Notes under the pieces: generated by a model
The model's database searches: none
Seen by the model: only the letters and a program-made list of their open reading frames with translations
Told to the model about the DNA's origin: nothing
Position numbers and translations under genes: made by a program
Shown: positions 1-62,853 of the stretch, in pieces
Layout: each line of letters starts with the position of its first letter
Numbering within the stretch: position 1 is the stretch's first letter
Source of the DNA: an uncultured virus (IMG/VR IMGVR_UViG_2897109615_000002)
Taxonomy: Duplodnaviria > Heunggongvirae > Uroviricota > Caudoviricetes
Reading direction: 5' to 3' (one strand)
Virus record (IMG/VR): IMGVR_UViG_2897109615_000002
Span: 62,001-126,000 of that record
Length of the DNA stretch: 64,000 nt

Positions 1-170
1 TTATTCTTAAAGAACAATTCAATCATGTTTTGCTCCATTCCTGGTGAAAAGGAATTAATAAGCTCCTGTTTAAAATCCTCATCGTAAACTTGATCAACGA
101 ATAAGGCTTTAAATCCCGTCAGGAAGCCAACACCAAGCCAGAGTATTAAGAAATACGAAAATCCAATCAT
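1..170 (-). CDS. yopE: Small membrane protein, YopE-like (runs off the window edge)
   Basis: ATG at 170 after GGAGGAGG; MIGFSYFLILWLGVGFLTGFKALFVDQVYDEDF resembles SPbeta YopE as remembered. Confidence 0.7.
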   Translation of the reverse strand, partial: MIGFSYFLILWLGVGFLTGFKALFVDQVYDEDFKQELINSFSPGMEQNMIELFFKN

Positions 171-240
171 AAAACCCTCCTCCTTATATACATCGTCTGG
201 TATTATAGTAGAGTTAAATATCCTATGTAGGTGAATTTGT

Positions 241-423
241 ATGGAAGAGAAAAATTTTGAGACAAATGGGTATGATGTTTCTGTCATTTACGATTATAAG
301 GAGTACCCTGATGTTAAGTATGGTCGCTGTGACAACTGTGATTACACTCTGTTTAAGAGTTCAGTGAAAAGTGGCGTGTTTTTACGCGAGTGTCGTAGAT
401 GTGGGATGAAGAAGAGTATCTAA
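241..423 (+). CDS. Small Zn-ribbon protein (YoyH-like)
   Basis: CDNC...CRRC motifs; AGGTG RBS. Confidence 0.7.
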   Translation: MEEKNFETNGYDVSVIYDYKEYPDVKYGRCDNCDYTLFKSSVKSGVFLRECRRCGMKKSI

Positions 424-433
424 ACACTCTTCT

Positions 434-718
434 TCATTTATTTTTAGGCTTGATTTCAATTTCAAGATCTAAGCCGTCTAGAATTTTGAGTAAAGTGTCC
501 ACATTGTAGTTCTTACCGTTAGTAACTCTAATAATTTGTGGATGTTTTAAATTAACCTTTTCAGCTAATTTCCTGACTGAGAGCTTATTTTTATCTAGTC
601 CATCTTTAATTGCATTAATGATCTTAAGTTTAGGTACAGAGATAGAATAATATTCTTCAGGAACTTCCATAATGTCTTCAATATTCATTTCAATAATATC
701 GTCTTTATTTGATACCAT
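434..718 (-). CDS. XRE-family HTH regulator
   Basis: LSVRKLAEKVNLKHPQIIRVTNG HTH; better start is ATG 718 after GAAAGGA; imperfect palindrome TGGTACCATATGAGTTACCA (747-766) lies in its promoter. Confidence 0.75.
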   Translation of the reverse strand: MVSNKDDIIEMNIEDIMEVPEEYYSISVPKLKIINAIKDGLDKNKLSVRKLAEKVNLKHPQIIRVTNGKNYNVDTLLKILDGLDLEIEIKPKNK

Positions 719-995
719 AAATCCATCAATCCTTTCTAGATAGAATGGTACCATATGAGTTACCACTTTGCAATCTTTTATTTCACTGGAATCATGTAGC
801 TTACATATACTTCAATTCCATCTTCAGTTCTATATTTTGCAATCTTGTCTGGATCAGATTCAATCTTTTCAATAAGTCGCTTTGCGCCTTTATTTCCCTT
901 TTCACTATTGGTTACAGCAATCCAAGACCAATAATATTAAAAAATAGATGCAGCTTTTTAGTATTAAAGCAAGTTCCCTGTCTTAATTTTTTCCA

Positions 996-1478
996 TTAAC
1001 TATGTCGTTGATCAATAAACTCGCTTGCATATCGGTATAGCTCTTTATATTCCGTTTCATCAACTGGAGACTCTATTAATTCAACCCCGTTCTTTACGGC
1101 AGTGTAGGTTCTTCCATCATGGGGATACGTTTCCCAGACAACTGGGATTGTAATATTTTTGAAGTTTGAAAGTTTTTTAGATTTTTTAAATTCTTCTCTT
1201 TCAGTTATCCTAGAAGCTGCGATGTCTATTATCTCGCCATGCAGTAATACCCACATATGAAATTCGAACGGAGGATTCCACTTGTATTGAACTGGTAATG
1301 ATGGAAATATAACTGATCCTGCTTTTAATTTTGCATTTTTATTGTATTTCTCTTTCAATAAATCTTTTGTTAGATAAGATGTATAAACACACGCGTCGCC
1401 TATTCTTATCCCAGATTTATCAAAAGCAAAGAAAATACTTTCCACAATATTTTTTTGAATAAGCTCTTTATTGTTCAT
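996..1478 (-). CDS. Hypothetical protein (C...H...D pattern, possibly transglutaminase-like)
   Basis: ORF with GGAGGGG RBS; GDAC and FHMWVLLHGEIID motifs. Confidence 0.6.
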   Translation of the reverse strand: MNNKELIQKNIVESIFFAFDKSGIRIGDACVYTSYLTKDLLKEKYNKNAKLKAGSVIFPSLPVQYKWNPPFEFHMWVLLHGEIIDIAASRITEREEFKKSKKLSNFKNITIPVVWETYPHDGRTYTAVKNGVELIESPVDETEYKELYRYASEFIDQRHS

Positions 1479-1524
1479 TTTGCCCCTCCGTAGTCGTTAA
1501 AAGAATGATTTTAACTTAATTGTT

Positions 1525-1800
1525 TTAATCGTTTAAGTATTCTTTTTCCGTTTCGGATCTTATTCCACCCCACTCAGATGACCACAATGTAAATGTTTTA
1601 CCGTTTGTTAATTTAACGAAAATCGGGTAGGAATCAACTGGCTCTATTCTTGCCTTTTGTCCAAACATCTCTGAGTAAACTCCTTCAAAATCTTGCTTAC
1701 TTGACCAGGAAGGCTTTTTTATGTATGCATATTCCACCATATCACCTAAAATATCTTTCATTTCTTTAGTTAGAATAATTGTGTCATTGATTAGTTGCAT
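1525..1800 (-). CDS. Hypothetical phage protein
   Basis: ORF with AGGGGTG RBS. Confidence 0.6.
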   Translation of the reverse strand: MQLINDTIILTKEMKDILGDMVEYAYIKKPSWSSKQDFEGVYSEMFGQKARIEPVDSYPIFVKLTNGKTFTLWSSEWGGIRSETEKEYLND

Positions 1801-1827
1801 ATTGCACCCCTATCTAGTTCAAAATTT

Positions 1828-2228
1828 TTATTCAGTAACACCATTTTCATATTCAAGGTTGTATGTTGCTATTTCGTGTACTCCAATATCCCCTACAAAG
1901 TTTCCATCCTCATGCTCCTGTTGTAAATAAACCTCTTTATCTTTTCCGAAGATTTTTCTTGCTTCACCTAATTCAGTTACAGCTTGTGATCCCATTCATC
2001 TTTTACAGTAAAAACTAAGCACCGTTTACCTCGGCTGCGTTCTGCCAAGACTCACCCATTTGGCTTTAGCCTAACAATTTCATTATGTTTTTTATCGATT
2101 GCTTCTTGGAGAACCACTGAAACAGTATTGCTATCGGACTTACTTAAAGCCAGTTCTAATTCTTCAATTTCCTTAAGCAATATTTGAATTTCAATTTCCT
2201 TAAGTAACTCTTGTCTATTCTCTCTCAT
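1828..2228 (-). pseudogene. Degraded hypothetical gene
   Basis: MRENRQELLKEIE...KPNG* followed by an out-of-frame tail ...EHEDGNFVGDIGVHEIATYNLEYENGVTE*; internal 15-bp direct repeat. Confidence 0.5.
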
Positions 2229-2270
2229 TTTTCATCTCTCCCTTTTTTTGTTAAATGAATTATTTTTTAT

Positions 2271-2507
2271 TTAAATACCTTGGTTATAGCCTGATTTGTC
2301 AATAGTAACGAGATGCTCAATGTCATCATAATGCTCTGCATTCATAACCTCATATATATCAATCCCAAGATTCTTTTCCAAATTTCTTTTGGCATGTAAA
2401 ACAATCATATTATCTGCATTAATACCATTAGGCATTTGTGGTACACCCGCATCTGTTTTGACCTCTACCCCATTCACATTGAAAGTTACTTTTACTGTAT
2501 TCCGCAT
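2271..2507 (-). CDS. Hypothetical phage protein
   Basis: Likely start MRNTVKV after AGGAGAGG. Confidence 0.6.
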   Translation of the reverse strand: MRNTVKVTFNVNGVEVKTDAGVPQMPNGINADNMIVLHAKRNLEKNLGIDIYEVMNAEHYDDIEHLVTIDKSGYNQGI

Positions 2508-2567
2508 TATAACCTCTCCTCTTACCTGAAAAAGTGATTTTATGTTGTTTCTCGAAGTGCAGTGCAA

Positions 2568-2882
2568 TTACTCCACTTTCAGCAGGATTGCTTTTTGATT
2601 TCTAAACTTTGTCAATTCAATATTTTTTTGAAGACCCTGATCCAATAAGAACTGATACATTTTTTCTGTTTGATTATCCTTTTCTTCGTTAGGCATTCCC
2701 CGGAAAGCCATATTGCCAGCTGTATAATAGAGGCAGTAATCGTCGTCAAACGTCTTGGCAAAAGTAAAACCCGCAGAAATATTGCTTAGTCCTTTTACTC
2801 TGCTTTTAAAGCACTCAGATTTTTTAAAGCTACCTTTTAATAAAATTCGCTGAACTTTTGTTTTTAAAGAAGTCGGCAACAT
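2568..2882 (-). CDS. Hypothetical phage protein
   Basis: ORF with AGGAG RBS. Confidence 0.6.
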   Translation of the reverse strand: MLPTSLKTKVQRILLKGSFKKSECFKSRVKGLSNISAGFTFAKTFDDDYCLYYTAGNMAFRGMPNEEKDNQTEKMYQFLLDQGLQKNIELTKFRNQKAILLKVE

Positions 2883-2999
2883 CTTTTTTCTCCTATTCCC
2901 TGTGAAAGTACGATTTTATGTAGACCTAGAAAATTTGTAAGTATTTACTGTTCTTGTAACTTTAGTATACCATGATCACTTAAAGTGATCAATATCTTT

Positions 3000-3203
3000 T
3001 TAATCTTTTTCGTAGATCAGCAGCTCATGCAACTCAATATCTAAATATGTACAGACTTTATCCAACAGATCCCTTGGGTACCGCTCCATTTCGTCATGAT
3101 ACAGCTTCCTGACTGTGTTAAAACCATGATTAATATCATTGGACAGCTTTCGAATACTGATATTCCTTTCGTCTAATATTGGCTTTAAATTTGATTTAAT
3201 CAA
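3000..3203 (-). CDS. Cro/C1-type HTH regulator (YopB-like)
   Basis: [27 protein letters not shown] start at 3203 after GAGG. Confidence 0.8.
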
Positions 3204-3296
3204 TATTACTACCTCGCATTCATTATGTATGATCACTTTAAATTATCATTATATCCATAAAAAAGGTCAAGGATATACCTTGACTATGTATTAAGC

Positions 3297-3734
3297 TTAC
3301 CAATCAAATGAATATTCATGTTCAAATCCATAAATACCTTTAATCCACACGTCCCCGCAGCCTGGATTCTTTGTAATCTCTAACACATGATTACGATTTG
3401 CATCTCCCTCTACTCGATCTGCAGCAGTATAGTCGGCATAGTTCCCTACAAACTGCTTTTCACTACGTGGAAATACCCAGCCAGCAAGAGTTATCCTACT
3501 GATTTTCATATTTAGAGTACACCCTTCTGCATTGCTAATTGTGAATTTGTAGAAGAGCCAAGTGCGATCATAATTCCGATCAAAATAATCTGCCATTGAA
3601 AAACTCTCTGAATCTTTACTCATGTGAAAATTTACATTTTGGTAGTCTAATGTAAGCTTCGCCTCGGCATTCGGTGTGTTGAAACTCAATACAAAACCAA
3701 TACAAATCAAAGTTAGACCGATTAACTTTTTCAT
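3297..3734 (-). CDS. Secreted protein with Sec signal peptide
   Basis: MKKLIGLTLICIGFVLSFNTPNAEA signal peptide; strong RBS. Confidence 0.7.
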   Translation of the reverse strand: MKKLIGLTLICIGFVLSFNTPNAEAKLTLDYQNVNFHMSKDSESFSMADYFDRNYDRTWLFYKFTISNAEGCTLNMKISRITLAGWVFPRSEKQFVGNYADYTAADRVEGDANRNHVLEITKNPGCGDVWIKGIYGFEHEYSFDW

Positions 3735-4038
3735 TTCCCCTCCCCCTTCTTCCAAATTATACTATATTCGGGATGGAGGTGAAAGAACAGGCGGAAGCTG
3801 TTTGATTTATCTGTATTCTTCATGATATAGATAGATATACATACATCAATGAATATCTTCATGTATTTATAAGTATTTTTATCTCTCAATACACGCAAAT
3901 ATGCTTTAAAATGAACAAAAATATTTATTTTAGTTCATTTTAAAGAACAAATCTTCCAATTTTATGATATAATCATCACTGCTTATAGGTAGCCCTTGCT
4001 GCTTATTCGCTATATGGTATAGGAAAGAGGTTCTTTTA

Positions 4039-5133
4039 ATGAACGTAAAACACACTAATTGTTTCTTTGTTATCAGGCTGTTTGCCGCTCTTTGTGTGCT
4101 TACTGGCCATGCTACAAGAGATCTAAACATTTCTGTCTTTGGTTATACCCCAGAGAGTAAAGCAATATTTCACACCGGCATATCAATATTCTTTTTTCTA
4201 AGCGCATTTTTTCTTTTCACTTCTTATGAGAGATTCAAGCTTAAAGGAAATAATGTAACCGATTTTTATTGGAGCCGAATCATCAGAATCGCACCCGCTA
4301 TATACGCCTATGCTATTGTCTCCACTGTCCTGTTAATTGTTCTAGGAGCACTTTCATTTTCAGTATTTGCTACTAGAGAGTACTGGACATGGCTTCTTAG
4401 CAATCTTGTGCTATATCCTCAATACTTCCCTGACATATTCCATCACATTGGTACAGGTCGCATTAACGATTCACTTTGGACAATTCCTGTTCAGATTAGC
4501 TTTTACCTTGTGTTACCCGCAATTTATTGGTTTTATAAACGTTTCGGATTCAAAAAAATGATTCTTTGCTCTTTTGCTGTTTCTGCTTTCAGTGTGTTGG
4601 TTTCTTTCTTAATTTTAAAGTTCGCGCCAGGCAGTGTAATCGGTGGGTTTTACCTACATTCTTTCCTGCCGCAAATGTTTTATTTCACGTTGGGTATCTT
4701 CTGGGCTAAGACATGGAACAAGTCGCCGCAACATATAACTTTATTTTTATTTACTATTATTTTATTTTTATTCTTTAAAATCGACCCTCTACACCTCAGC
4801 TCAATAAACAGCACATTATGGAGCTTTTTATGGTTTGTGCCTTTGAGCTATGCAATTGTCTGGTTCGGGTACAATGGGCCGAAGATTTTGTGGCAGCTAA
4901 ATCGGTTAGACGATATCAGTATGGGAATTTTCATATGGCACATGGTGATTATCAATATTTTCTTGTACACAGGAATTTATAAAACATTGTCGGATTACCC
5001 GCTGATCATAATTCTAATCGTTGTTACTGCTACAATCGCTTTTCTTTCGTATAGATTAATTGAAAAACCTGCTCTAAAATTACGCAAAAACAGTGATATC
5101 AAATTGAACAATAAAACAAAAATAGCAAGTTAG
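4039..5133 (+). CDS. Acyltransferase-3 family (OafA-like) membrane O-acyltransferase
   Basis: RLFAALCVLTGH, FFFLSAF, RIIRIAPA, SLWTI and SYRLIEKP motifs; about 10 TM segments; oriented opposite to neighbours. Confidence 0.9.
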   Translation: MNVKHTNCFFVIRLFAALCVLTGHATRDLNISVFGYTPESKAIFHTGISIFFFLSAFFLFTSYERFKLKGNNVTDFYWSRIIRIAPAIYAYAIVSTVLLIVLGALSFSVFATREYWTWLLSNLVLYPQYFPDIFHHIGTGRINDSLWTIPVQISFYLVLPAIYWFYKRFGFKKMILCSFAVSAFSVLVSFLILKFAPGSVIGGFYLHSFLPQMFYFTLGIFWAKTWNKSPQHITLFLFTIILFLFFKIDPLHLSSINSTLWSFLWFVPLSYAIVWFGYNGPKILWQLNRLDDISMGIFIWHMVIINIFLYTGIYKTLSDYPLIIILIVVTATIAFLSYRLIEKPALKLRKNSDIKLNNKTKIAS

Positions 5134-5134
5134 T

Positions 5135-5161
5135 AAGGCTGTTTCGTTTAGACAGCCTTTT
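5135..5161 (+). terminator. Intrinsic terminator between convergent genes
   Basis: AAGGCTGT...ACAGCCTT followed by T-run. Confidence 0.7.
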
Positions 5162-5176
5162 CTCATACAGAGTATT

Positions 5177-5581
5177 TTAAAAATTCAGCTCTCTATACCT
5201 TCTCAATATGTAATCGTTAATTTCATATTGCCAATCCACCTTAATTGAATATCCTTTTATTCTAACAGGCTTATTCCACAATAAAGATTCTCCATATCGA
5301 TCCTCTATTTTTCCACCTTCCTCTAAACCATAATGGTTAAAGAAATTCAGAGTGCAACAATCATAATTGTCTTCGGTATAACCGGAATCTTTTTTCACCC
5401 AAGTTTCTGCTAATTCATAAAGCCAGGCTGGTGCACTTAGATCGATACCAAACAATTTTTTAGCGCAGGTGGATCCATAGGGTTTCCCATCAAATTCAAA
5501 CACTTTTTTATGTTTCTTGCCGCATGCAGTGCAGTTTTCGTTCCCTACATAAACTTTAAACATTGTACCTGCCAACTCCAA
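5177..5581 (-). CDS. Hypothetical protein with CxxC...GSTC motif
   Basis: ORF; CTAC and YGSTCA; start uncertain. Confidence 0.55.
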   Translation of the reverse strand: MELAGTMFKVYVGNENCTACGKKHKKVFEFDGKPYGSTCAKKLFGIDLSAPAWLYELAETWVKKDSGYTEDNYDCCTLNFFNHYGLEEGGKIEDRYGESLLWNKPVRIKGYSIKVDWQYEINDYILRRYRELNF

Positions 5582-5659
5582 TCTTCTGATCCTGATTCTA
5601 AGTGTAGCTAAAACTTTTATTGCTGCCTATTAACAATTATGATGAAATGGTGTTTTTAT

Positions 5660-5980
5660 TCAAAGTTGTTTAAGATGCTTGAATTGAGGTGTATTTAACT
5701 CCTCCTCATATTCACTTTCAAGATATTTTCTTATGTCATCAGCAGATGCGTATAGATATGTGAAAGCCATATCTAACACAGCTTTTCTTTTCCTTATATC
5801 CTTATTCGACAATCCTGTTCCTTCGCCTTCATCAACCGAACCGAGCAAATCATATAAAGTTTGGGTGAAATCTTTTAAAGTGTAAGTCATATGATCAAAG
5901 TCTCTGTTTTGCGCTTCTTCAATATCTGATTCATCTAGCCTTTTCATTAGATGTATAAATTCATTTTCCATCCTGTGCAA
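5660..5980 (-). CDS. Hypothetical phage protein
   Basis: ORF with RBS. Confidence 0.6.
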   Translation of the reverse strand: MHRMENEFIHLMKRLDESDIEEAQNRDFDHMTYTLKDFTQTLYDLLGSVDEGEGTGLSNKDIRKRKAVLDMAFTYLYASADDIRKYLESEYEEELNTPQFKHLKQL

Positions 5981-6194
5981 CTCCTATTCTGTTTAAAACA
6001 TGTTTTATTTAATCTTAGCTTCTATTTGTACAAACTCTCCCAGTGGCTCAACACATGCTACTTCGTACATGCAGTCGTCATATGTATTGAGTAGAACCTG
6101 TGTTTCCTCTGTTATTTACCCTTTTTTATCATCTCTTGTAATGAATCAATCAATTGTTTAACCTTCATGGCTATTGTATTTCCCCTCTCTTTAG

Positions 6195-6398
6195 CTACTC
6201 AGTTGGCCTAATTAATCGTTCAATCCCTTTTACATAATCAAAAAAGTCGTCTTGATCGTCAAGAATGTCGAACATGTTATGTTCGCCTGTAAAAAGCCAT
6301 TGTGGATTCTCACCATTTGTTTGAATCTCCATAATAAAGGTGGTATCGCCTTCTACAATATCTTCATCTTCTTCGATCTCATAATGATACTCAATCAA
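6195..6398 (-). CDS. Small acidic hypothetical protein (possibly a fragment)
   Basis: ORF without a clear RBS. Confidence 0.4.
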   Translation of the reverse strand: MIEYHYEIEEDEDIVEGDTTFIMEIQTNGENPQWLFTGEHNMFDILDDQDDFFDYVKGIERLIRPTE

Positions 6399-6504
6399 TT
6401 TTTTAAAGCTTGACTATCTTTTATTTCTTTTGAATAAAATGTTAACCCCTGATTTTCATATTCCTTTAGTTTAAAGCCGTTGTCCAGTAAGAATTGAACT
6501 CTTA

Positions 6505-6750
6505 TCAATATATATATTTATAGCTTTCAATACTGCTAGAGTCCATTGATTCGTGTATATCTTCAATAGAATCTAGGAGCACTTTTAGAGCCTTCTTCGG
6601 AAACAAATCCAACAGGTCAGAAAACAACAAATCATTTAAATGATTATCAAACTCCTCAAACTCGAGTATTCCTCCATCTTCATAACTAGCTTTAAGCATA
6701 TATCGAATCTTCTCTCTCATTTGATCATTTGTCATGTTTAATTCCCCCAA
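6505..6750 (-). CDS. Hypothetical acidic protein
   Basis: ORF; likely start MTNDQ. Confidence 0.55.
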   Translation of the reverse strand: MGELNMTNDQMREKIRYMLKASYEDGGILEFEEFDNHLNDLLFSDLLDLFPKKALKVLLDSIEDIHESMDSSSIESYKYIY

Positions 6751-6792
6751 TTTCCCATAATTATACTCTGATTACATTCATTTGAAATTGTT

Positions 6793-7066
6793 TTATTCCG
6801 ATTTCAAGGCATTCACAAGCTTTTCTTTACAATCATCACATACATTTACAATACATGTTGCATACGGTACATATAAGCTGTATACACGCTTTATTCTTCT
6901 GCGTCCGCACCCATCCCTATCTGTTATGACGTTTAAAGATGCTGTCGATACTATGTAAGACCGAACAATCTAAGTCTTCTATGCTCTCAGCATAACCAAT
7001 TCTTGAAATTGTTCCAATCTCAATATTATTAAATTTATTCCACGCCTCTTTCATCGCATTTTTCAA
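6793..7066 (-). pseudogene. Frameshifted paralogue of the Zn-finger gene at 8021-8206
   Basis: 3' frame DGCGRRRIKRVYSLYVPYATCIVNVCDDCKEKLVNALKSE* versus DGCGHRRIKGGYSLYLPYGTNIVKVCDDCKEKFMDALKSE*. Confidence 0.7.
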
Positions 7067-7114
7067 TTAATCTCTCCACTTTCATCTTTAAGCGAGAAAT
7101 CTCGTTATCTCCTG

Positions 7115-7516
7115 TCACTGCGCACCTCCGTTATTTGACATGTATCTCATACTGATTAATGCATCGAAAGTTGTATTGATAACTGCCGTCACACTGTTTG
7201 TATTATATGACCTATACGGCATGTTCCCATGTTCATTTATCGAAAATTCGTACATTTTAATGTCCTTATCGAATGCTAGTTTGAAATTTTTGAATCTGTC
7301 GTCGATCTCTAACGCTTCGAGTATATCTCCAACTAGATTCTTATCACTCTGTATATGGTCTATACGGCATCTATAATTTCCGTCAAAATCAAATAGACTT
7401 ACAGTCGATCTATTTCCTTTTCCTGTGTACGGATGCAATTTCAATAAATCAGTTATGATCACTTTAACTTTTCCGTCTTTTTTATCCCATAAATCAATTA
7501 TTCCTTCTTTCATCAC
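7115..7516 (-). CDS. Hypothetical phage protein
   Basis: ORF with AGGAG RBS. Confidence 0.6.
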   Translation of the reverse strand: MMKEGIIDLWDKKDGKVKVIITDLLKLHPYTGKGNRSTVSLFDFDGNYRCRIDHIQSDKNLVGDILEALEIDDRFKNFKLAFDKDIKMYEFSINEHGNMPYRSYNTNSVTAVINTTFDALISMRYMSNNGGAQ

Positions 7517-7562
7517 GTTACTCTCCTATATGTTTAAAACTGTTGTTTTATTAAATTTTTCA

Positions 7563-7988
7563 CTATTTCCAGTCTATCGGCTTTAAATTCGTTTTATCTG
7601 TTAAGTAATCAAGAATATCTTTTCTGCCTCCATATCTACAATAAACGTATTTAAAATTTAAATGCATTGCGGCAAACATTCTGTGATTCCCATCGATTAT
7701 AATAGGCTTGGGAAGTATGTAGTCATTAAAAATTTCATTATCTAATTGTATGCCTTGGATTTCGTTTGGATTTTCCACAAAATAAAGAATCCTCCTAAGA
7801 TGCTCAGTCTTTCCCCATTCTAAATTAACTGTATTATCTAAATGACCATATGACTCTCTTAAAGGCAAAAGTTTCTTCGCTTCATTTGCAAATGATGATA
7901 AAGAAATAGGGTCTTCCGTCCAGATTGTGCAATTTTCATATTTCAAACTCATCAAATCATACAGCTTTCTAACGTTGATCTTATACAT
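7563..7988 (-). CDS. ParB/Srx-like domain protein
   Basis: PIIIDGNHRMFAA motif. Confidence 0.6.
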   Translation of the reverse strand: MYKINVRKLYDLMSLKYENCTIWTEDPISLSSFANEAKKLLPLRESYGHLDNTVNLEWGKTEHLRRILYFVENPNEIQGIQLDNEIFNDYILPKPIIIDGNHRMFAAMHLNFKYVYCRYGGRKDILDYLTDKTNLKPIDWK

Positions 7989-8020
7989 GCCTATAGCTCC
8001 CTGTTCTGTGCCAAATTGTT

Positions 8021-8206
8021 TTATTCAGATTTCAAGGCGTCCATAAACTTTTCTTTGCAATCATCACATACCTTTACAATGTTTGTTCCATACGGCAAAT
8101 ACAAGCTATAACCCCCCTTTATTCTTCTGTGTCCACATCCGTCACAATAATCTGTTATTTCTGATTTATATAGGTTGATTTTATCTCTATCCAAACTGCA
8201 CCACAC
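8021..8206 (-). CDS. Small Zn-finger protein
   Basis: CDGC...CDDC; AAGGAGG RBS. Confidence 0.65.
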   Translation of the reverse strand: MWCSLDRDKINLYKSEITDYCDGCGHRRIKGGYSLYLPYGTNIVKVCDDCKEKFMDALKSE

Positions 8207-8243
8207 CCTCCTTAATCATCCGTATGTGTGTAAAATTGTTGTT

Positions 8244-8609
8244 TTATTCAGAAATAATTGCATGTATTCTTCTTAATTGATCTAAAGTTAATTCAACCGA
8301 CGACCACCTATTAAAGACTGATCGTATTTCAAATATTAACCTTTCTTTCTCTTCCTCATCAATAATCTCTTGTTTTGATAAATAAAGTTCCCAGTCAGCA
8401 CTATATTCTGTCACTTGAGTCATATCTTCCAAAGAAAATTTGAGCATCCGTCTCGTTTCAGTCTCTCCCATATTTCCAACATAGAAGTATTTCTTTCCTT
8501 TTTTAAGTACGGTCTTCTCTAGCACTTCTTTTCTTCCATAACGTGCGGCGTCATTAACTGGTTTTAGAAAAACCGGTGTACCAACGTTTATCATCTGTTC
8601 TTTTTTCAA
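8244..8609 (-). CDS. Hypothetical phage protein
   Basis: ORF with GGGGAG RBS. Confidence 0.65.
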   Translation of the reverse strand: MKKEQMINVGTPVFLKPVNDAARYGRKEVLEKTVLKKGKKYFYVGNMGETETRRMLKFSLEDMTQVTEYSADWELYLSKQEIIDEEEKERLIFEIRSVFNRWSSVELTLDQLRRIHAIISE

Positions 8610-8641
8610 GTTCTATCTCCCCATTCTGTTTAAGTATTGTT

Positions 8642-8896
8642 TTATTCATCCTTAGAAAATTGTCTATTGAAAAGTTCAATCGCTCTATCATAGGTTGCTA
8701 ATTGTGCGAGATGTTTGTCAATATTACTGCCATTTCCTTGCAATCCATCCGATATATATAATTGCTGATTGTTTTTTAACTTTGATTCTAAATTATCTAA
8801 CATGTTACGAATACTTGAAATTTGATTCTCTAATCGCATTTTAGCCTGTTCTCTTTCTGCTTCAAGCATAACTGAGTTTCTATTTTCTTTCGTCAT
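8642..8896 (-). CDS. Hypothetical coiled-coil protein
   Basis: ORF with GAGG RBS. Confidence 0.6.
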   Translation of the reverse strand: MTKENRNSVMLEAEREQAKMRLENQISSIRNMLDNLESKLKNNQQLYISDGLQGNGSNIDKHLAQLATYDRAIELFNRQFSKDE

Positions 8897-9008
8897 ATCA
8901 TATCATCCTCTCTCATTTCAATCTCTCAGTTCTGTTTAAAATATGCATTTTATTTTATTTTTACCCTTAAAATATGTATGCTTTCGCTGTTGTTTTAACT
9001 TGATTTAA

Positions 9009-9057
9009 GTATATCATGACTATTTTAAATAATCAATACTTATTTTATTTTTATTCT
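9009..9057 (-). promoter_or_regulatory. SigA-type promoter with A-rich UP element and palindromic spacer
   Basis: TTGATT-17-(TG)TATACT on minus strand; near-identical layouts at 12668-12716 and 2965-2992. Confidence 0.7.
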
Positions 9058-9073
9058 TAAAGTGTGTGTTTTG

Positions 9074-10675
9074 TTATGATGTAAGCATGAGAATCTTCGA
9101 TGTATCCAGGATATAATAAGAAGCGTTATTTACCGTTTCATTATAAGATTGCGCACCCTCAAAATTATTGATTACGTCTTTTTCTTCTGCTGTCATATCC
9201 TGATATTTTACCTTGCCATACGAAGGAGGAAGCCAGTTTTTCTTTTGGCTGCCAAAAATATTAAATTTCTTGAGAATTTCCATATCTTTAAACTCAATGT
9301 GACATGTCCCTTTTTTATAGAAAGAGACATAAAAGTACTTTAATTCTAGTTTTTTCGTTTCGCCGTAATGCTCAGCTAGCTTTAAAGTTTCATCTATGTT
9401 TATGTCTTCTGTTAACCCATTGTCAAGGTAATTGAAAACTTTTTCGACATCCTTCAACTTTTCTAAGACCTTGTAGTCTGTTGGATTATACCGACCATCT
9501 AGCCAGCTATACACGTTCAATGGGATAATTATTTTTTTATTAATTTTATATGATTTATTTGTTTTCCACCCATTATATAAGTGCACATTTTTTGATGATT
9601 CATCATAGTAATGCTTGTGGCTAAATTCTTCAAAAAGATTAAGTATTGTATCTTCTACGCCCTGCGTCATCTCTTTGCTCATCTGAATTCTTAATGTATA
9701 GATATTGAACAAAGAAAAGTCATAATCTTTTAATTCCTCAACGTGCTGCAAGTATTTTTGTTTTAGGTTGCTTGTAAAGAGCCCCATAAACTGATCATTG
9801 TTAAATAACGTATTCCAATACTTCGCCCTAATTTGTTTTATATATGCGTTCTCTATGTCATTTTCTTCGGTATTCTTATCTATTTGCAGCTTCAATATTG
9901 GCGTACTGTCATCATTGAAACTATGCAGCATTAAGGGTTTCAAAATGTTGTATTCATTGATTAATTTTAAACCCGCTTTTATTTCATAGTTGAATTGTTC
10001 TACAATTCCTTTTATAAAGTCTACATTCACCAACTGTGTTGCTTTATAATCCTCATTAATTTTATAAGACTCATCCTTTTTCAATTCTTCTATTAGAACG
10101 CTGCTATATTCTTGTTTTTCAATGCTTATATATATTAGCGCCGTTTCAACTTCTGTGTTTCGCTCTGAGTTCGAAAAAGCGTTTTGAATGTATTCAACTT
10201 CTGCATTTATTTCCTCTAGCTTACGTATAAGAAATTTCCTGTCGTTTGAATACGGATTTTTTAATGTTTCGGCATTTAGTAAGCAAACAATTTGGCCGGA
10301 TCTTTGTTGCTTTTCAATTAATTCAATCGCCTTTAATAAATGTTTAACACCGCTACTAAAAGGTGGATTCATAAAAATCAAATCATACTTCTTGTAAGTG
10401 TTAAACGTCAGAAAATCGTCTGCTACCACTCTATAACTTTTCCCCTCAAGGATGTGCCTTAAGTTTTCATCTTGTTCAATTGAATCAATATCATATTTCG
10501 AATTCCCTCTATAGTTCTTGGTGTTTTTGAATTGATTGTGAATAGCTTCTACCAAATCCCCTTTACCTGCTGACGGCTCTAAAACAGACTTAATATGCTT
10601 CCATTCTATTTTTGATGTCATTTTTCGGATTAACTGTGCTGGTGTCGGATAAAAATCCGGATTATCTTTAAACAT
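9074..10675 (-). CDS. SAM-dependent amino (adenine) DNA methyltransferase with DUF4942-like C-terminus
   Basis: Motif I VLEPSAGKG, motif IV MNPPF; C-terminal YKKGTCHIEF. Confidence 0.85.
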   Translation of the reverse strand: MFKDNPDFYPTPAQLIRKMTSKIEWKHIKSVLEPSAGKGDLVEAIHNQFKNTKNYRGNSKYDIDSIEQDENLRHILEGKSYRVVADDFLTFNTYKKYDLIFMNPPFSSGVKHLLKAIELIEKQQRSGQIVCLLNAETLKNPYSNDRKFLIRKLEEINAEVEYIQNAFSNSERNTEVETALIYISIEKQEYSSVLIEELKKDESYKINEDYKATQLVNVDFIKGIVEQFNYEIKAGLKLINEYNILKPLMLHSFNDDSTPILKLQIDKNTEENDIENAYIKQIRAKYWNTLFNNDQFMGLFTSNLKQKYLQHVEELKDYDFSLFNIYTLRIQMSKEMTQGVEDTILNLFEEFSHKHYYDESSKNVHLYNGWKTNKSYKINKKIIIPLNVYSWLDGRYNPTDYKVLEKLKDVEKVFNYLDNGLTEDINIDETLKLAEHYGETKKLELKYFYVSFYKKGTCHIEFKDMEILKKFNIFGSQKKNWLPPSYGKVKYQDMTAEEKDVINNFEGAQSYNETVNNASYYILDTSKILMLTS

Positions 10676-14706: not shown

Positions 14707-14808
14707 TAGTGACTAAAGGGGAATTAATCCCCTTTAGCGTGTTATCTGCGTATACGTTTGCGTTGTCTCTTGCTACGGAGGCGCTTGCGTGTACGCTTTT
14801 TCTTTTTG
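14707..14808 (+). ncRNA. SR6-like antisense antitoxin RNA
   Basis: Plus-strand promoter TTTACA-16-TATAAT with extended TG (14674-14701); hairpin CTAAAGGGG...CCCCTTTAG; terminator GCGTATACG...CGTGTACGC plus U-tract antisense to the yonT 3' end. Confidence 0.75.
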
Positions 14809-14921
14809 CTTTCTTTATTCTTCATCAGGTTTTGAATCTTCTCAGCTATCGTTAAACAGTTGATGATTAAAACCGTGATAGGAATAAGGAAAGCAATTGT
14901 TATACCCACTTTCTCAAGCAC
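14742..14921 (-). CDS. yonT: Type I toxin YonT
   Basis: GTG start after AAAGGAGGTG; MLEKVGITIAFLIPITVL TM helix with highly basic tail KRQRKRIRR. Confidence 0.88.
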   Translation of the reverse strand: MLEKVGITIAFLIPITVLIINCLTIAEKIQNLMKNKESKKKKRTRKRLRSKRQRKRIRR

Positions 14922-15903: not shown

Positions 15904-17015
15904 TTAGCGCTTTAGTCTCTTCAGTGCCTCCATATACGAGGTCTTTTTCGATTCCTTGTTCTCCAGTTTTTTCGGTTTAAATAAATCCTCTCTACGGCGA
16001 TTCTTCGCTTTATAAACAGTTGTTTCTTTAACTTCAGTGTTCCCATTTTCAATTAAATCATCTAACTGCTTCATTCGCTCATTGATCCAGGTTAATCCAC
16101 TAAGAATCGTTATCGCCCTATTACCTTTATCATATGCCCTTTAAATAAGTCTAGGGGCATCTTGTTATCAAAGACATTAAACAGCTCATTATACGATATA
16201 TGCTCCGTTAAAAACTCATGAACATCCAGGATAACACCAGCTCTCATCACATTTGCAAACTCAACAGGAGTAAATATCGAATTGTTCCACGACTTCTGTA
16301 TATCTTCATGTAGCTTATCAAAATACTTGCCCTCATTTGTAAATTCATTGAGGTCTGTTTGAGCAATAGTCATGATTCCTGGTGTGTCAAAAAGCTGATT
16401 TAAATCCTTCCTGTCTAAAGTGCTGATTTTTGACCCTCTGTCTGTGTAATTGAGTAAGACTTCAATTAAATCAAGGAACATCTTGTTTGTCTCCTTGTAA
16501 AGCCTGCTCTCTGAAATCTTTCCATCATATTTACTCAAAACCATTTGATTATCCAAAGGTAAAACACATGTTTCTGGCATAGATAAGTCATCAAGTAGCT
16601 CCAGTGAATTCATCTGGTTAACCAATACCTCATTATTGTCAGGAAGGATTGGTACAGCCACTATTGTTTTATGTGTAAGACATTCGTTTAACAATTCTAA
16701 TAATATAGGAGCTACCCCTGAACCGGTTCCACCAGCTGCAGAGAAAACAACAAAAATAACTTGTACTGAAGGTTTTTCCATTGTGTTCTTTATAAACTCA
16801 ATTGATGACTCCCAGTTATTTTTCATATGTTTCGCTGCTACGCTTCTATCTTTACCTACTCCTTCTGTCCCTACCAGATGAAGCTTATCTTGAATATTGA
16901 TTAATGAATTAAGGTCTGAAAGTGAATAATTTATTGCAACAGAATGAAATCCCCTCTTCATTGCTTCATCCGCTATACTTCCACCGGCCTGACCAACTCC
17001 AATAAATCCAAACAT
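15904..17015 (-). CDS. Tubulin/FtsZ-family GTPase (TubZ-like), with a 1-nt frameshift near 16135
   Basis: GVGQAGG, GVGKD and AAGGTGSG tubulin signature, LDRKD; C-terminus continues in another frame (YDKGNRAITILSGL...RLKR*) to the stop at 15904. Confidence 0.85.
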
Positions 17016-17299
17016 TAAACCCTCTCCCCTTCTAATTGGTATCTCAAAGCTTCTTGTCCATATTGAGTAATAAAAACTGTATGCTCTTTGCTGTTTTTCA
17101 CTATATTGATAAACTGCAAGGCCTCAAGACGATCGATGCTCTTTCTAAAGGTAGCATCAGTTAACTGAGTTTTTTCTTGAATGGTTTTCTTCCTAATTGA
17201 TTTAAACTTTAAATCAGCCCCTTCATCGCTCAATAAGCCTAGAATATACAGATCATTTCGAGTTAAATTATCAATGACTGAATCAAAATAAGTATCCAT
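17015..17299 (-). CDS. Winged-helix DNA-binding protein (TubR-like adaptor candidate)
   Basis: ATG 17299 after AAGGAGG; TDATFRKSIDRLEALQFI...VFITQYG wHTH; translationally coupled to the tubulin gene. Confidence 0.7.
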   Translation of the reverse strand: MDTYFDSVIDNLTRNDLYILGLLSDEGADLKFKSIRKKTIQEKTQLTDATFRKSIDRLEALQFINIVKNSKEHTVFITQYGQEALRYQLEGERV

Positions 17300-17477
17300 G
17301 TAACCCCTCCTTAATATCTGATGATTTTGAAGTATCTTGGTTGATATACGATTATTATATTGTTTATTTGCATTTAAATGCAAATATTTTTGTATCTTAA
17401 TGCAAATATTCACACTCTGCTTGTATGTAAACCAGTCATTTTATAAAATTTATTCAAACAGCAAAAGGATGATTTAA

Positions 17478-26715: not shown

Positions 26716-26842
26716 TATAAAACTTTAATTTTATCTAGATAAACACCTTTTTAGAACGCCCATTGATGATTGCGGTACCCTTTCCGCTCTATTGCTGGGC
26801 GTTTTATAAAATGTGTTTTTAGAAATTAACGGAGGTGAGTAG

Positions 26843-27892
26843 ATGAATATTGAAAAAATTGTTTGCTCCTGTTGTGGAAAAGAAAGAGACGCAGGACAAT
26901 ATTACGCCTCTGCCTCCCCTTTTCACGCTGCAACAGGTAAGCTACACATCTGTAAACAATGCTTATTAAAAATTGCTGACTCAGACATAGAAAGTCCTAT
27001 CCATATACAAAATCTCTTACGAATGCTTGATAAACCATACTTACACACTACCTGGATTTCTTCAATTGAAGAAGCAGCAAATAGAAATAGGCATTTATTT
27101 TCAATTTACATGAAGAATTTAGGTCTTAGACATAACCGCATGAAAACATGGCAAGACAGTGAGTTCGACGAAGATGGCACGAAAACGCAGCAAGAAATAA
27201 ACGCAGATCATCCATCTAAAGATGATGGCATTCAGTTAGATGATACCAATAAAAATGATGTATTAAGGATGTTGGGATATGATCCGTTCGAAGGAGAAAT
27301 TGAGAGTGACAAACGTCTTCTTTACAATAACCTAGTCAACTTCCTTGACGAAGGAACATTAGAGGACAATTTCAAACTACCCGCTGTAATTGAAATTGTA
27401 AAAGGATTTAATCAAATTGATAAAATAAACCGAGCAATTGCGACAATTACAAGTGACGTAGCTAATATGTCTAATCAGGCAGGCGGCATTAAATCCTTAA
27501 TTGACTCCAAAGAAAAGATTCTCAAATCCATGCTGGCTTTAGCTAAAGACAATGGTATCTCGGTAAACCATAACAACAATAAAAGCAAAGGTGCCGGGAC
27601 TCTTTCAGGAATTATTAAAACACTTCAGGAGAAAGGCTTTGAAGAAGGAGAAGTTAATCAATTTGATATTGAGACAGCACAAGGGATAAGACAAGTAGCT
27701 GATTTAAGTAATAAAAGTATTATGGATCAATTGCAATTTGATGAGAATGATTATACTTCAATGATCATGGAGCAAAGAGAAATTATTCAGAGCTTAGATG
27801 CAAGAACAATCACTCTTGAAGAAGAAAACCGGAAGCTTAAGAAAGAATTATTTAGCCTGAGTAAAACAGAAGGAACTTTGACAAATGTCTAA
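26843..27892 (+). CDS. Zn-finger protein before terminase (YonG position; possible small terminase)
   Basis: CSCC...CKQC; overlaps the terL start. Confidence 0.65.
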   Translation: MNIEKIVCSCCGKERDAGQYYASASPFHAATGKLHICKQCLLKIADSDIESPIHIQNLLRMLDKPYLHTTWISSIEEAANRNRHLFSIYMKNLGLRHNRMKTWQDSEFDEDGTKTQQEINADHPSKDDGIQLDDTNKNDVLRMLGYDPFEGEIESDKRLLYNNLVNFLDEGTLEDNFKLPAVIEIVKGFNQIDKINRAIATITSDVANMSNQAGGIKSLIDSKEKILKSMLALAKDNGISVNHNNNKSKGAGTLSGIIKTLQEKGFEEGEVNQFDIETAQGIRQVADLSNKSIMDQLQFDENDYTSMIMEQREIIQSLDARTITLEEENRKLKKELFSLSKTEGTLTNV

Positions 27893-38809: not shown

Positions 38810-38871
38810 ATTGAGGGGATACTTCCCCTCTCCTTTTTAAATAAAAGTCAGTTTTTAAACAGATTTAGGAG

Positions 38872-41028: not shown

Positions 41029-41877
41029 ATGAAAACAATAACTTTCATTACATTCATCAGTGCTTTAGTCTTACTTGGGGGATGTTCATTTAACGAAGTA
41101 GAAACATCAGCTACTGGATTAGGAAAAGGAAGCAGTAAACAATACGAGCCGTTAATGATTGCACATCGAGGCGCATCAGAAATTGAGCCAGAGCATACCT
41201 TACTCTCCTACGAACGAGCAATAAAAGACAAAGCAGACTACATTGAAATTGATTTAAGACAAACCAAAGACGGTCATCTAGTCGCAAATCATGATAAGAC
41301 TGTTGATCGAACCACAAACGGCAAAGGAGAAGTTGAGGATCTTACATTAGATCAGATTAAAAAGCTACGTACTGAAAAAGGGCAAAATATCTTAACGATT
41401 GAAGAAATAATTAAAAAGTTTGGACAAACTACAAACTATTATATCGAGACTAGAACAAACAACAAAGGCAAATTAGTAATGGAGAAAAAGTTAACTGACA
41501 TACTCTCTAAAAATAAATTAATCGTTAATAACAAAGTTGTTCTAGAATCATTTAGTGAAAAAAGTCTAAAGAAATTACATAAGCTTAACAGCCATGTGCC
41601 TCTTGTTCAACTTTTAAAAGATGAAGACGTAAAGAATATGAGCAATTCAAAGCTAAAAGAAATAAAAAAATATTCTAATGTTGTTGGCCCTAATGCCAAA
41701 TTGGTTGATAAAGATTTTGTTGAGAAAGTCCACAATAACCATATGAAAGTACATGTGTTTTTTGATACTGATAAAGAAAGAACATACACTTCCCAAATGC
41801 TGAAGTTAAAAGTTGATGGACTATTCACAAATAATCCAGCTTATACAGAAAAAGTTCTAAAAGAAGATTATAAATAA
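41029..41877 (+). CDS. Glycerophosphodiester phosphodiesterase lipoprotein (GlpQ-like)
   Basis: Lipobox LGGC; IAHRGAS, EHT, IEIDL, HD and GLFTN motifs. Confidence 0.9.
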   Translation: MKTITFITFISALVLLGGCSFNEVETSATGLGKGSSKQYEPLMIAHRGASEIEPEHTLLSYERAIKDKADYIEIDLRQTKDGHLVANHDKTVDRTTNGKGEVEDLTLDQIKKLRTEKGQNILTIEEIIKKFGQTTNYYIETRTNNKGKLVMEKKLTDILSKNKLIVNNKVVLESFSEKSLKKLHKLNSHVPLVQLLKDEDVKNMSNSKLKEIKKYSNVVGPNAKLVDKDFVEKVHNNHMKVHVFFDTDKERTYTSQMLKLKVDGLFTNNPAYTEKVLKEDYK

Positions 41878-41959
41878 AATACAAGTTTTATTTAGACACC
41901 TCTCCCCTTTTGAGGTGTCTTTTTTAATGTGTGCAGAGGATATATTAGGAGGAATTGAA

Positions 41960-62754: not shown

Positions 62755-62853
62755 CCCTTAAAATTAAAGGAGGTGGTTATGTTCTAGTTAAAATATAAAT
62801 TTTATTCAATTTACAGCATTCAAAAACAGAGATAACAAGAGCATACGTGAGAT

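Follow-up and report, generated by a model that had tools for sequence, protein, structure and literature searches.

The minus-strand region 1497-8955 of the 64,000-nucleotide stretch of DNA analysed here (the window) carries small genes bounded by a repeated A/T-rich motif, and it raises the question of whether that motif delimits the cassettes of an integron-like shuffling system, as an earlier note proposed, or is a signal of another kind. All 13 minus-strand and three plus-strand copies listed in that note were found in place. Its pattern, ATAAAA-N(3-7)-TTT, exceeds the A/T-rich background (48 matches vs. 27.9±5.7, with 0 of 100 dinucleotide shuffles reaching 48), and 11 of 24 distinct minus-strand start sites, but 0 of 14 on the plus strand, lie inside 1497-8955. 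A stricter form, WTAAAA-N6-TTTHA, fits seven of the 13 minus-strand copies and all three plus-strand ones; the others are variants (5991, 6781, 8011, and 8628) or weak (1817 and 2251). This strict dyad gives 24 matches in the window (15 sites, nine of them readable on both strands) against 3.94±2.00 in shuffles, 0 of 100 of which reach 24. The same arms separated by five bases (6 vs. 3.4 expected) or eight bases (3 vs. 3.6) show no enrichment in the window, and on the early coding strand of the whole provirus, spacers of 3 to 10 bases yield 3, 3, 3, 30, 11, 7, 4, and 3 matches. The element is thus a dyad of 17-18 bp, (A/T)TAAAA, six free bases, and TTT(T/C/A)A, whose conserved part is just a pair of 5-6-bp A/T arms flanking a 6-nt spacer.

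A by-product of A/T-rich composition, of the context of TAA stops, and of A/T-rich leaders might look similar in this SPbeta-like Bacillus phage of 35.6% G+C, in which the loose pattern is enriched only 1.7-fold and the 13-nt right half by itself hardly exceeds expectation genome-wide (18 matches vs. 11.3±3.5). We consider this explanation extremely improbable, as it is largely refuted by the confinement of the enrichment to the 6-nt spacing and by counts in relatives and host; the intergenic position of 30 of the 33 sites in the provirus speaks against it too. SPbeta has 15 forward and 5 reverse dyad matches vs. 0 and 1 for a back-to-front control pattern, and per-strand counts in 15 close relatives are 24-39 vs. 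1-7 for the control, which is 7-10 times rarer than the dyad in phage records. A 4.5-Mb Bacillus genome, with 227 matches vs. 103 for the control, is poor in dyads despite its thousands of gene junctions.

Within the array, a sigma-A-like promoter (9008..9036, minus strand; TTGATT-17-TATACT with TG) stands at the head, with copies of the 12-mer TAAAAATAAAAT on both sides (9042-9053 and 8952-8963). The first junction, in the 5' leader of gene 8642-8896, is a strict minus-strand dyad with spacer TGCATA (8936..8953, listed at 8934), which shares 2 nt with a TAAAAATAAAAT copy; a 24-nt unit at this site recurs in relatives with differing left and right flanks. The remaining strict minus-strand dyads are at 8231..8247 (listed at 8230; spacer CAACAA; its TAA ends gene 8244-8609, and gene 8021-8194 lies downstream), 7534..7551 (listed at 7532; spacer CAACAG; 35 nt upstream of the start of gene 7115-7516), 5643..5659 (right arm TTTCA; immediately past the TGA stop, at 5660, of gene 5660-5971), 2903..2919 (spacer TCGTAC; 37 nt upstream of gene 2568-2882), 2527..2543 (right arm TTTCA; 36 nt upstream of gene 2271-2507), and 1497..1514 (spacer TCATTC; 36 nt upstream of gene 996-1478). 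Four further minus-strand copies are variants: 8628..8645 has a CTTAA right arm and supplies the stop of gene 8642-8896 upstream of gene 8244-8609; 8008..8024 (listed at 8011) has a 3-nt spacer and supplies the stop of gene 8021-8194 upstream of gene 7563-7988; 6780..6796 (listed at 6781), also with a 3-nt spacer, ends a degenerate paralogue of gene 8021-8194; and 5993..6008 (listed at 5991), upstream of gene 5660-5971, is a perfect 14-nt palindrome with a 4-nt spacer. The copies at 6781 and 8011 are not independent, because the genes whose 3' ends they form are paralogues, one of which is degenerate. The weak minus-strand copies are 1817..1831, whose TAA ends gene 1828-1995 without an N6 dyad, and 2251..2270, a motif-like A/T stretch past the stop of gene 2271-2507 that does not fit the dyad. 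The TAA of the motif is indeed a stop codon at 1828, 6793 (in the degenerate gene copy), 8021, 8244, and 8642, and a Shine-Dalgarno sequence does follow most copies, as had been described; a motif at most boundaries holds for 13 boundaries if any form is counted, but for only seven with the strict dyad.

The region is not one uniform array: an acyltransferase gene lies on its plus strand (4039-5133), and it also includes a terminator as well as at least three promoter-like starts (9036-9008, 3783-3756/3270-3242, and 2992-2964). Promoter-like matches within 1-9200 number 30 vs. 39.7 in shuffles, and the dyad itself lacks a promoter. Nor is the element specific to the array. Strict plus-strand dyads lie at 26717..26734, between genes 25407-26594 and 26843-27892; at 38841..38858 (listed at 38840), 37 nt upstream of late gene 38878-39237, with AAACAGAT and then a Shine-Dalgarno sequence on its 3' side; and at 41874..41891 (listed at 41873), where the TAA ends the GDPD-family gene 41029-41877 and a terminator-like hairpin comes next. 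Another, on the minus strand, occupies a gap in the lysis region (62788..62805). The whole 127-kb provirus holds 33 dyad sites, spread phage-wide and reaching late genes and operon ends, and 30 of these lie outside called genes, though called genes make up 88.8% of the genome. SPbeta has roughly 30 dyads, as does each of about 25 records of related phages. The motif therefore marks intergenic junctions throughout the family of SPbeta-like phages and is not peculiar to 1497-8955.

The placement of the element is regular. We compared 24 related arrays lying downstream of a shared anchor gene, in which the strict dyad occurs at 60 of 422 junctions (23 arrays) and a relaxed form at 87; the expectation of one site for every gene unit thus fails. 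The dyad usually sits right at or past the stop codon of the upstream gene, with its first base mostly 32-40 nt upstream of the next start codon (24 arrays), and on its 3' side are conserved AAMAGA-like bases and then the Shine-Dalgarno sequence. Exactly six spacer bases are found in 61 of 71 junction copies vs. 7 of 23 intragenic copies (24 arrays). The element is also asymmetric relative to transcription: of 86 symmetric cores, 71 have an A just before the left arm but only 24 a T just after the right arm. TTTCA and TTTAA are frequent as right arms, without a corresponding change on the left.

These features could suggest a small AU hairpin or single-stranded AU signal in polycistronic mRNA that directs its processing or stability, or how the following gene is translated; in favour of this are the constant proximity of the dyad to a Shine-Dalgarno sequence, at a narrow distance, its orientation bias relative to transcription, and the conserved AAMAGA bases that separate the two. 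We judge such an RNA-level role very unlikely. Of eight copies folded as single strands, four give a minimum free energy of 0 and the other four -1.0, -2.4, -3.4, and -4.8 kcal/mol, the A-C mismatches created by the TTTCA arm are common and uncompensated, no Rfam family matched the region, and some copies stand in promoter regions or past the last gene of an operon.

Across more distant relatives (58-74% identity in the anchor protein), arms and spacing are retained in 69 copies, nearly all of which differ in spacer. With arms and 6-nt spacing conserved while the spacer drifts freely, selection appears to keep the dyad as a signal in its own right, and such a pattern would most likely mark the site of a dimeric phage protein. 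The dyad could then be an operator only, bound between genes at about 30 points by a DNA-binding phage dimer that regulates transcription or blocks it, with no causal role in recombination; the stoperators of mycobacteriophage L5 are the model. The fixed spacing, the conserved arms, and the largely intergenic placement of some 33 sites per genome suit this explanation, as do copies at promoter regions or operon ends that have no downstream Shine-Dalgarno sequence, including one upstream of an aimR homologue (G000:59948-59965) and one in SPbeta (76170) that adjoins the SPBRE of the aimR promoter.

What the operator has to account for is the mosaicism. The 24 arrays contain 468 genes in 162 families, heavily shuffled and with order swaps included. 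The left boundary of homology falls within -3 to +2 of the first base of the motif in 40 of 67 informative pairs of relatives, and the right boundary at +14 to +19, just beyond the right edge of the dyad, in 26 of 80; these pairs are not independent, as several come from one family and the phages are related. Cassette joints therefore fall at the motif, as the earlier note had predicted for gain and loss breakpoints. Ends of blastn matches to relatives are seen at 8912-8956, 8621-8648, 8223-8232, 8006-8017, 7550-7552, 6787-6789, 5988-6004, 2529-2545, 1826, and 1498-1500. The comparison supports the notion that single small genes act as cassettes whose gain, loss, and replacement joints coincide with the motif. 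An operator that is simply the sole conserved intergenic sequence into which alignments extend, with selection keeping genes whole, would give similar joints, and dyad-free junctions likewise show indels, shuffling, and breakpoints right at gene starts, so gene-edge breakpoints need no motif. However, the 15-nt core of 2903..2919 (TCGTAC type) occurs at 14 distinct junction contexts among relatives and that of 1497..1514 (TCATTC type) in nine, spacer included and with unrelated flanks on both sides, which argues that these cores were copied and not merely conserved. Families preceded by a dyad also have more varied upstream neighbours (0.85 vs. 0.53; Mann-Whitney p=0.0035), a test that is exploratory only because the arrays are related, and the asymmetry relative to transcription again fits poorly with an operator. 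We regard a purely regulatory role as a real though minor possibility.

Resemblance to integron attC and pdif arrays lies in single-gene units bounded by a repeated inverted-repeat site, with a stop codon sometimes inside and a constant orientation to the genes. Integron attC and pdif sites have arms of 7-11 bp or more, a folded strand, and an integrase beside the array. The dyad has 5-6-bp A/T arms, no stable folded strand, and no adjoining integrase; it is found genome-wide at a minority of junctions, and homology boundaries flank its core on both sides, which argues against a single fixed crossover point. The enzyme proposed in the note, a Cre-like YomM homologue (42875-43876, plus strand), is not tied to the motif: it has a sub-threshold match to an integrase N-terminal domain, a weak Cre match, and nothing stronger, and at E<=1e-5 its gene is lacking in six motif-rich relatives of 96-100% completeness (G002, G009, G011, G013, G020, and G025). 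The cassette-shuffling proposal thus survives as single-gene cassettes with joints at the motif, without its integron, pdif, and YomM parts.

Exchange at the dyad by another phage tyrosine recombinase, with the 6-6-6 dyad as its core and recombination between same-spacer sites only, has a better candidate in a conserved orphan YopP-like protein encoded outside the window. This apparently intact protein has a Pfam Phage_integrase match (E=1.9e-14), and its alignment to XerD and XerA brings R, HxxR, and GH into register, with a Tyr one position off the nucleophile. It is present in 25 of 26 motif-rich records (G001-G026), a co-occurrence confounded by phage kinship, and is missing from several records with some motif enrichment (G028, G035, G036, and G045; 44-81% complete). 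The geometry is like that of recombinase core sites and of the MrpR operator at SPbeta promoters (5-bp arms flanking 7 bp), close relatives have in common discrete classes of spacer whose flanks are promiscuous, no spacer recurs within the provirus, many joints enclose just 15-19 nt of shared identity, and yopP is reported as transcribed in SPbeta lysogens (bioRxiv 10.1101/2021.11.22.469490). Nevertheless, the short A/T arms with unmatched right-arm changes, boundaries that converge on no single point, and sites among late genes and at operon ends make site-specific exchange unlikely.

Other phage systems share parts of this arrangement. Cluster A mycobacteriophage stoperators are asymmetric 13-14-mers with a known binding protein, and cluster K start-associated sequences are part of the translation start region; both resemble the present element as dozens of transcription-oriented sites in short intergenic gaps near stop or start codons, but ours is a dyad with a free spacer. 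Boundary or linker sequences of lambdoid phages, which are position-specific homologies at module joints, are likewise short conserved gene-boundary stretches where mosaic joints cluster, whereas here one repeated motif of fixed geometry is used. The same phage family has another intergenic repeat, SPBRE, which is the operator of MrpR (YopR), an SPbeta repressor with a tyrosine-recombinase fold. Like the dyad, SPBRE has short inverted arms on either side of an A/T spacer, and the protein that binds it is recombinase-like (Kohm et al. 2023, PMC10516654). In SPbeta it reads AATACAAAWAATATGTAT at the yonP, yonT, yonX, aimR, yopM, and yopV promoters; this differs from the dyad, and no SPBRE was found in the window at up to three mismatches. 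SPBRE occupies about ten promoters, and the ten MrpR ChAP-seq peaks reported for SPbeta each fall at one (PMC10516654), whereas the dyad occupies about 30 gene junctions.

We favour, at about an even chance, a conserved intergenic junction signal that also provides short homology for modular exchange and is not a site of integron-type capture. Many junctions of closely related phages have identical cores of 15-19 nt, which lengthen to about 40 nt at most when the ribosome-binding region is included, and because of these shared cores, recombination between co-resident or co-infecting phages may resolve at dyads. With no spacer repeated among the 33 sites of the provirus, exchange within one genome would be limited to the 5-6-bp arms. 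Identity of 15-19 nt is short for RecA-type recombination. Homology-driven exchange might nonetheless proceed through host RecA or the phage-encoded AAA_24 family (Sak4-like) protein; a search for RecT or ERF family genes found none in the phage. For experimentally recombined SPbeta-like phages, 15 of 16 recombination sites were reported at homologous stretches (bioRxiv 10.1101/2020.05.06.055103).

The promoter-early stem-loops (PeSLs) of T4-type phages offer a parallel. These are likewise short conserved regulatory sequences between small non-essential genes of plastic regions that bound insertions, deletions, and replacements between close relatives, with exchange ascribed to inter-repeat recombination and mini-circles demonstrated (Arbiol et al. 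2010, PMC2839356). A PeSL is described as a strong sigma-70-like promoter with a terminator stem-loop (PMC2839356), whereas the unit here is an 18-bp A/T dyad plus ribosome-binding region, without a promoter or stable stem-loop. By analogy with PeSL cassettes, SPbeta-like phages may undergo modular shuffling at a shared regulatory linker, whereby single genes or blocks would be swapped at the dyads.

SPbeta, a model temperate phage, has an accessory region next to its arbitrium system in which genes for defence, counter-defence and toxins vary between strains. The window spans bases 62001-126000 of a provirus record of 127,161 bp and comes from an SPbeta-like Bacillus phage with patchy megablast matches of 82-96% to the phages Goe12/13, BUCT083, SPR and SPbetaL. 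Among public sequencing runs, one contains the full stretch and the others contain 13-15% of sampled words. Genes lie on the minus strand to about 17.4 kb and then on the plus strand (late genes). Judged by gene order against annotated SPbeta, 434-8955 is the counterpart of the variable yopA-yopJ stretch, from yonX to the arbitrium genes; the equivalents of aimR, aimP and yopM-R lie just outside the window, beyond its start. A methyltransferase-like gene and a sigma-A-like promoter stand at the head of this array, and nearly all of its small genes are without a family match in PHROG and Pfam scans, so that gene function gives no clue. Decayed cassettes lie at 6195-7066 on the minus strand, where small ORFs overlap one another and the gene at 8021-8194 has a degenerate duplicate; this duplicate flanks two genes inserted relative to the order in the related locus L018. 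An earlier note had described 1497-8955 as an integron-like array. The region is not uniform: it includes an acyltransferase gene on the plus strand, a terminator and no fewer than three promoter-like starts.

The same note had delimited the genes by a loose pattern, ATAAAA-N(3-7)-TTT, with 13 minus-strand copies between 1497 and 8955 and three on the plus strand (26717, 38840 and 41873). Every listed copy is present, and the pattern is modestly enriched (48 matches against 27.9±5.7, a count reached by 0 of 100 shuffles) and, in the region, strongly strand-biased, with 11 distinct sites on the minus strand of 1497-8955 and none on the plus strand. Comparing copies side by side, we identified a sharper unit, a dyad composed of [A/T]TAAAA, six bases and TTT(T/C/A)A. 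Of the listed copies, seven of the 13 on the minus strand and all three on the plus strand fit this strict form, the others being four variants and two weak matches; the copies at 6781 and 8011 are not independent, because they lie at the ends of two paralogous genes. Since the dyad is palindromic, the reverse strand is unusable as a control, and spacer length and the back-to-front pattern were used instead.

In the window, the strict dyad has 24 matches, corresponding to 15 sites of which nine read on both strands, against 3.94±2.00 in shuffles, while the same arms occur at chance with a 5-base spacer (6 vs 3.4) or an 8-base spacer (3 vs 3.6). On the early coding strand of the whole provirus, spacers of 3 to 10 bases give 3, 3, 3, 30, 11, 7, 4 and 3 matches, the 7-base class consisting partly of six-base sites with TTTT read again. 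The provirus contains 33 distinct sites, among which no spacer is repeated, and 30 of them fall outside called genes even though called genes make up 88.8% of the record. The right half alone, TTTTAAACAGAAT with two mismatches at most, shows hardly any enrichment across the genome (18 vs 11.3±3.5); the informative unit is the dyad and not this word.

The dyad is also a feature of related phages. Matches in SPbeta number 15 forward and 5 reverse (backwards pattern: 0 and 1), and there too they lie at gene junctions, including yoqC/yoqD, yoqD/yoqE, yoqX/yoqY and the yoqS stop. Among 50 related virus records, the 15 closest carry 24-39 matches per strand against 1-7 in the control; most records whose anchor protein is 58-74% identical are equally dyad-rich, and most of the far records (35-54%) are not. 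In a 4.5-Mb Bacillus genome that harbours a prophage of this kind, matches number only 227, compared with 103 in the control, and the pattern is therefore not a product of ordinary Bacillus gene-junction grammar.

We examined the anatomy of the dyad in 24 arrays, the window and 23 related loci (L009-L031), all lying downstream of one common anchor gene of 533 residues. The spacer is exactly six bases in 61 of 71 junction copies versus 7 of 23 copies inside genes, and the first base of the dyad lies mostly 32-40 nt upstream of the next start codon. The left-arm TAA is the stop codon of the upstream gene in 19 of the 71 junction copies, and the stop-in-site arrangement proposed for the window is correct at 1828, 6793, 8021, 8244 and 8642. 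The right arm is followed by AAMAGA-like bases and then a Shine-Dalgarno sequence. The element is directional: among 86 symmetric cores, 71 have an A ahead of the left arm and 24 a T after the right arm, and degenerate arms are mostly right-hand ones (TTTCA 28 vs TGAAA 9). Conservation covers 5-6 bp per arm, and the flanking information content is at most about 0.9 bit left of the arm and asymmetric to the right. Spacers fall into a small number of classes among close relatives (TCGTAC 14, TGCATA 11, TCATTC 9, CAACAA 6 and CAGCAG 6, from 57 distinct junctions), each with unrelated sequence on either side, and thus spacer identity among close relatives reflects copying. The 69 copies of the 58-74% group keep the same arms and spacing with nearly all spacers different, which argues that arms and spacing are under selection. 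Folded as RNA, four of eight copies have a minimum free energy of 0 and the others -1.0 to -4.8 kcal/mol; no Rfam family was matched in the array region. Rigid spacing, a free spacer and weak folding point to putative recognition by a protein dimer on DNA.

Gene order in the arrays is highly fluid. The 24 arrays comprise 468 plus-strand genes in 162 families, arranged in very different orders that include swaps, such as two families reversed between the window and L018. Relatives' blastn matches to the window repeatedly stop at motif positions, and a 99%-identical stretch common to the window and L009 stops directly after the first dyad. Where pairs share the downstream but not the upstream gene family, the motif is present in 67 of 132, and in 40 of these 67 the left boundary of homology falls from -3 to +2 of its first base. 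Where only the upstream family is shared, the motif is nearby in 80 of 229 pairs, with the right boundary at +14 to +19 in 26, +1 to +11 in 16, +22 to +35 in seven, +82 or beyond in five and before the motif in 26. Dyad-preceded families also have more diverse upstream neighbours (0.85 vs 0.53, p=0.0035; L019 was left out as a duplicate of L018), an exploratory comparison as the arrays are related. The prediction that gene gain and loss would break at the motif is thus borne out insofar as joints recur there, but not as an exclusive property: strict dyads occupy only 60 of 422 junctions (87 in relaxed form), junctions lacking one also break right at gene starts, and at least one two-gene insertion (L014 vs L010) lies in a gap without the motif.

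The joints enclose a core of 15-19 nt on either side, which fits exchange within a shared short sequence rather than at one fixed crossover point. The phage has a gene of the AAA_24 family (G000:33901-34872, in whole-provirus coordinates), which includes Sak4-type phage recombinases, and no RecT or ERF single-strand annealing protein was found in it. According to the accessible part of one study, SPbeta-like phages recombine at homologous stretches, with 15 of 16 sites at homology (bioRxiv 10.1101/2020.05.06.055103). On the strength of the joints around the core, this documented recombination and the AAA_24 gene, we interpret the dyad as a conserved signal at gene junctions that would double as homology where modules swap.

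The resemblance to attC or pdif sites suggested in the earlier note does not extend far. In single-stranded form, an attC site adopts a stable though imperfect hairpin of paired inverted repeats, and the eight dyad copies folded form no such hairpin. At the head of an integron array stand attI, a promoter and the integrase gene, each cassette has its own site, and boundaries fall at a single point in that site; here, no integrase gene was found at the array head, dyads mark 60 of 422 junctions and boundaries fall at both edges. A pdif site has 28 bp with two 11-bp arms around a 6-bp spacer, and the dyad matches its spacer length but not its arms, conservation beyond 5-6 bp being weak.

A role for YomM, the enzyme nominated earlier, is not supported. 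The YomM-like protein (42875-43876) has only a sub-threshold match to the integrase N-terminal Pfam domain and a weak match to Cre that takes in the first catalytic Arg; by eye its residues are R, HxxK, H and Y, with HxxK replacing HxxR. It is absent at E<=1e-5 from six motif-rich related records (G002, G009, G011, G013, G020 and G025) that are 96-100% complete and have 59-70 dyad matches each. The sole PF00589 match in the 127-kb record is instead a YopP-like gene (G000:56362-57420) in the yopM-R-like operon, outside the window and about 5 kb past the far end of the array. It has a clear Phage_integrase domain (Pfam E 1.9e-14), and in alignment with XerD/XerA its R, HxxR and GH match while the Tyr is one position off. 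Its presence in 25 of 26 motif-rich records (G001-G026) may only reflect kinship. We consider it improbable that a conserved orphan tyrosine recombinase of the YopP type uses the dyad as its core site, with two arms around a 6-bp overlap and spacer identity gating exchange, and true site-specific exchange at the dyad is a similarly long shot. The closest genome-collection matches to the anchor gene (94%, L088) and the YopP-like gene (98%, L168) share a 133-kb contig in an assembly that bears the title Streptomyces sp.; the contig seems to be that of a Bacillus phage, misplaced in this assembly.

Among described cases, the nearest is that of the PeSL (promoter-early stem-loop) cassettes of T4-type phages (PMC2839356, in its available portion). 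Small circles arise when PeSL copies recombine with one another. Both elements separate small accessory genes in a plastic part of the genome, and differences between relatives end at them, but a PeSL has an early promoter and a terminator stem-loop, whereas the dyad has neither a promoter hexamer pair nor a stable stem-loop; promoter-like sites are not enriched in the array, and none lies within a dyad. The single YonO start upstream of yonK, the one initiation site given in the accessible text of PMC5467207, and the location of the array on the early strand rule out a YonO promoter. A 15-bp SPBRE motif marks the ChAP-seq peaks of the repressor MrpR (PMC10516654, in the part available). The dyad is not this operator, as the SPBRE from six SPbeta promoters is a different sequence, and no SPbeta-type SPBRE occurs in the window with as many as 3 mismatches allowed. 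The arm-spacer-arm layout of the MrpR operator at SPbeta promoters is nonetheless comparable, which makes putative binding of the dyad by a recombinase-fold protein conceivable. A dyad at G000:59948-59965, 2 kb before the window, lies in the promoter region of the aimR homologue. Its SPbeta counterpart in the aimR promoter region (76170-76188) is directly upstream of an SPBRE and has no Shine-Dalgarno sequence downstream.

Other features of the phage were also identified. A word search located the 12-mer TAAAAATAAAAT nine times in the window against 0.15 expected, on the minus strand at 4759, 8952, 9042, 12701 and 14976 and on the plus strand at 17740, 17806, 18026 and 23238, usually in the form AGAATAAAAATAAAATA and either beside a promoter or immediately ahead of a Shine-Dalgarno sequence. 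The promoter TTGATT-17-TATACT at 9036-9008 stands between two copies, in exactly the layout of the two SPBREs around the SPbeta yonX promoter. The 12-mer may serve as operator for an MrpR-type repressor of the phage's own, which would imply a different immunity type; copies also in SPbeta are unexplained by this idea. A group II intron, recognized from Pfam and Rfam matches, interrupts a tape-measure/lytic transglycosylase gene (45860-55235): the end of ORF 45860-50272 truncates the SLT domain, a reverse transcriptase-maturase-HNH ORF (50819-52642) and an Rfam Intron_gpII match (52649-52745) follow, and the gene resumes at about 54033-55235. An Rfam SR6 antitoxin RNA (14710-14807, plus strand, 88.8 bits) and an antisense 59-codon ORF (14742-14921, minus strand) are a yonT/SR6-type type I toxin-antitoxin pair of SPbeta-like phages. 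A DUF3800-VIII RNA match (24859-24924, plus strand; 44.7 bits, gathering score 40.2) sits among tiny ORFs only. A tubulin/FtsZ-family gene and an adjoining winged-helix gene form a TubZ/TubR-like pair (16110-17413, minus strand), and a 923-residue homologue of the single-chain RNA polymerase YonO is encoded at 19580-22351 (plus strand).

We found no description of the dyad in the SPbeta literature searched. It goes unmentioned in the available portions of PMC10516654, PMC5467207, PMC2839356, bioRxiv 10.1101/2021.11.22.469490 and bioRxiv 10.1101/2020.05.06.055103, and the word 'motif' is absent from the accessible text of the preprint on SPbeta relatives (bioRxiv 10.1101/2021.11.22.469490). A junction element that occurs about 30 times per genome is a concrete handle on how accessory genes swap, and a ready marker of cassette boundaries in hundreds of Bacillus prophages. 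It also provides a testable target for those recombinase-like proteins of SPbeta-like phages that have no assigned function. Were the dyad the core site of a YopP-type recombinase after all, co-resident phages would trade single accessory genes site-specifically, in an integron-like cassette system carried by phages and based on a novel type of site.
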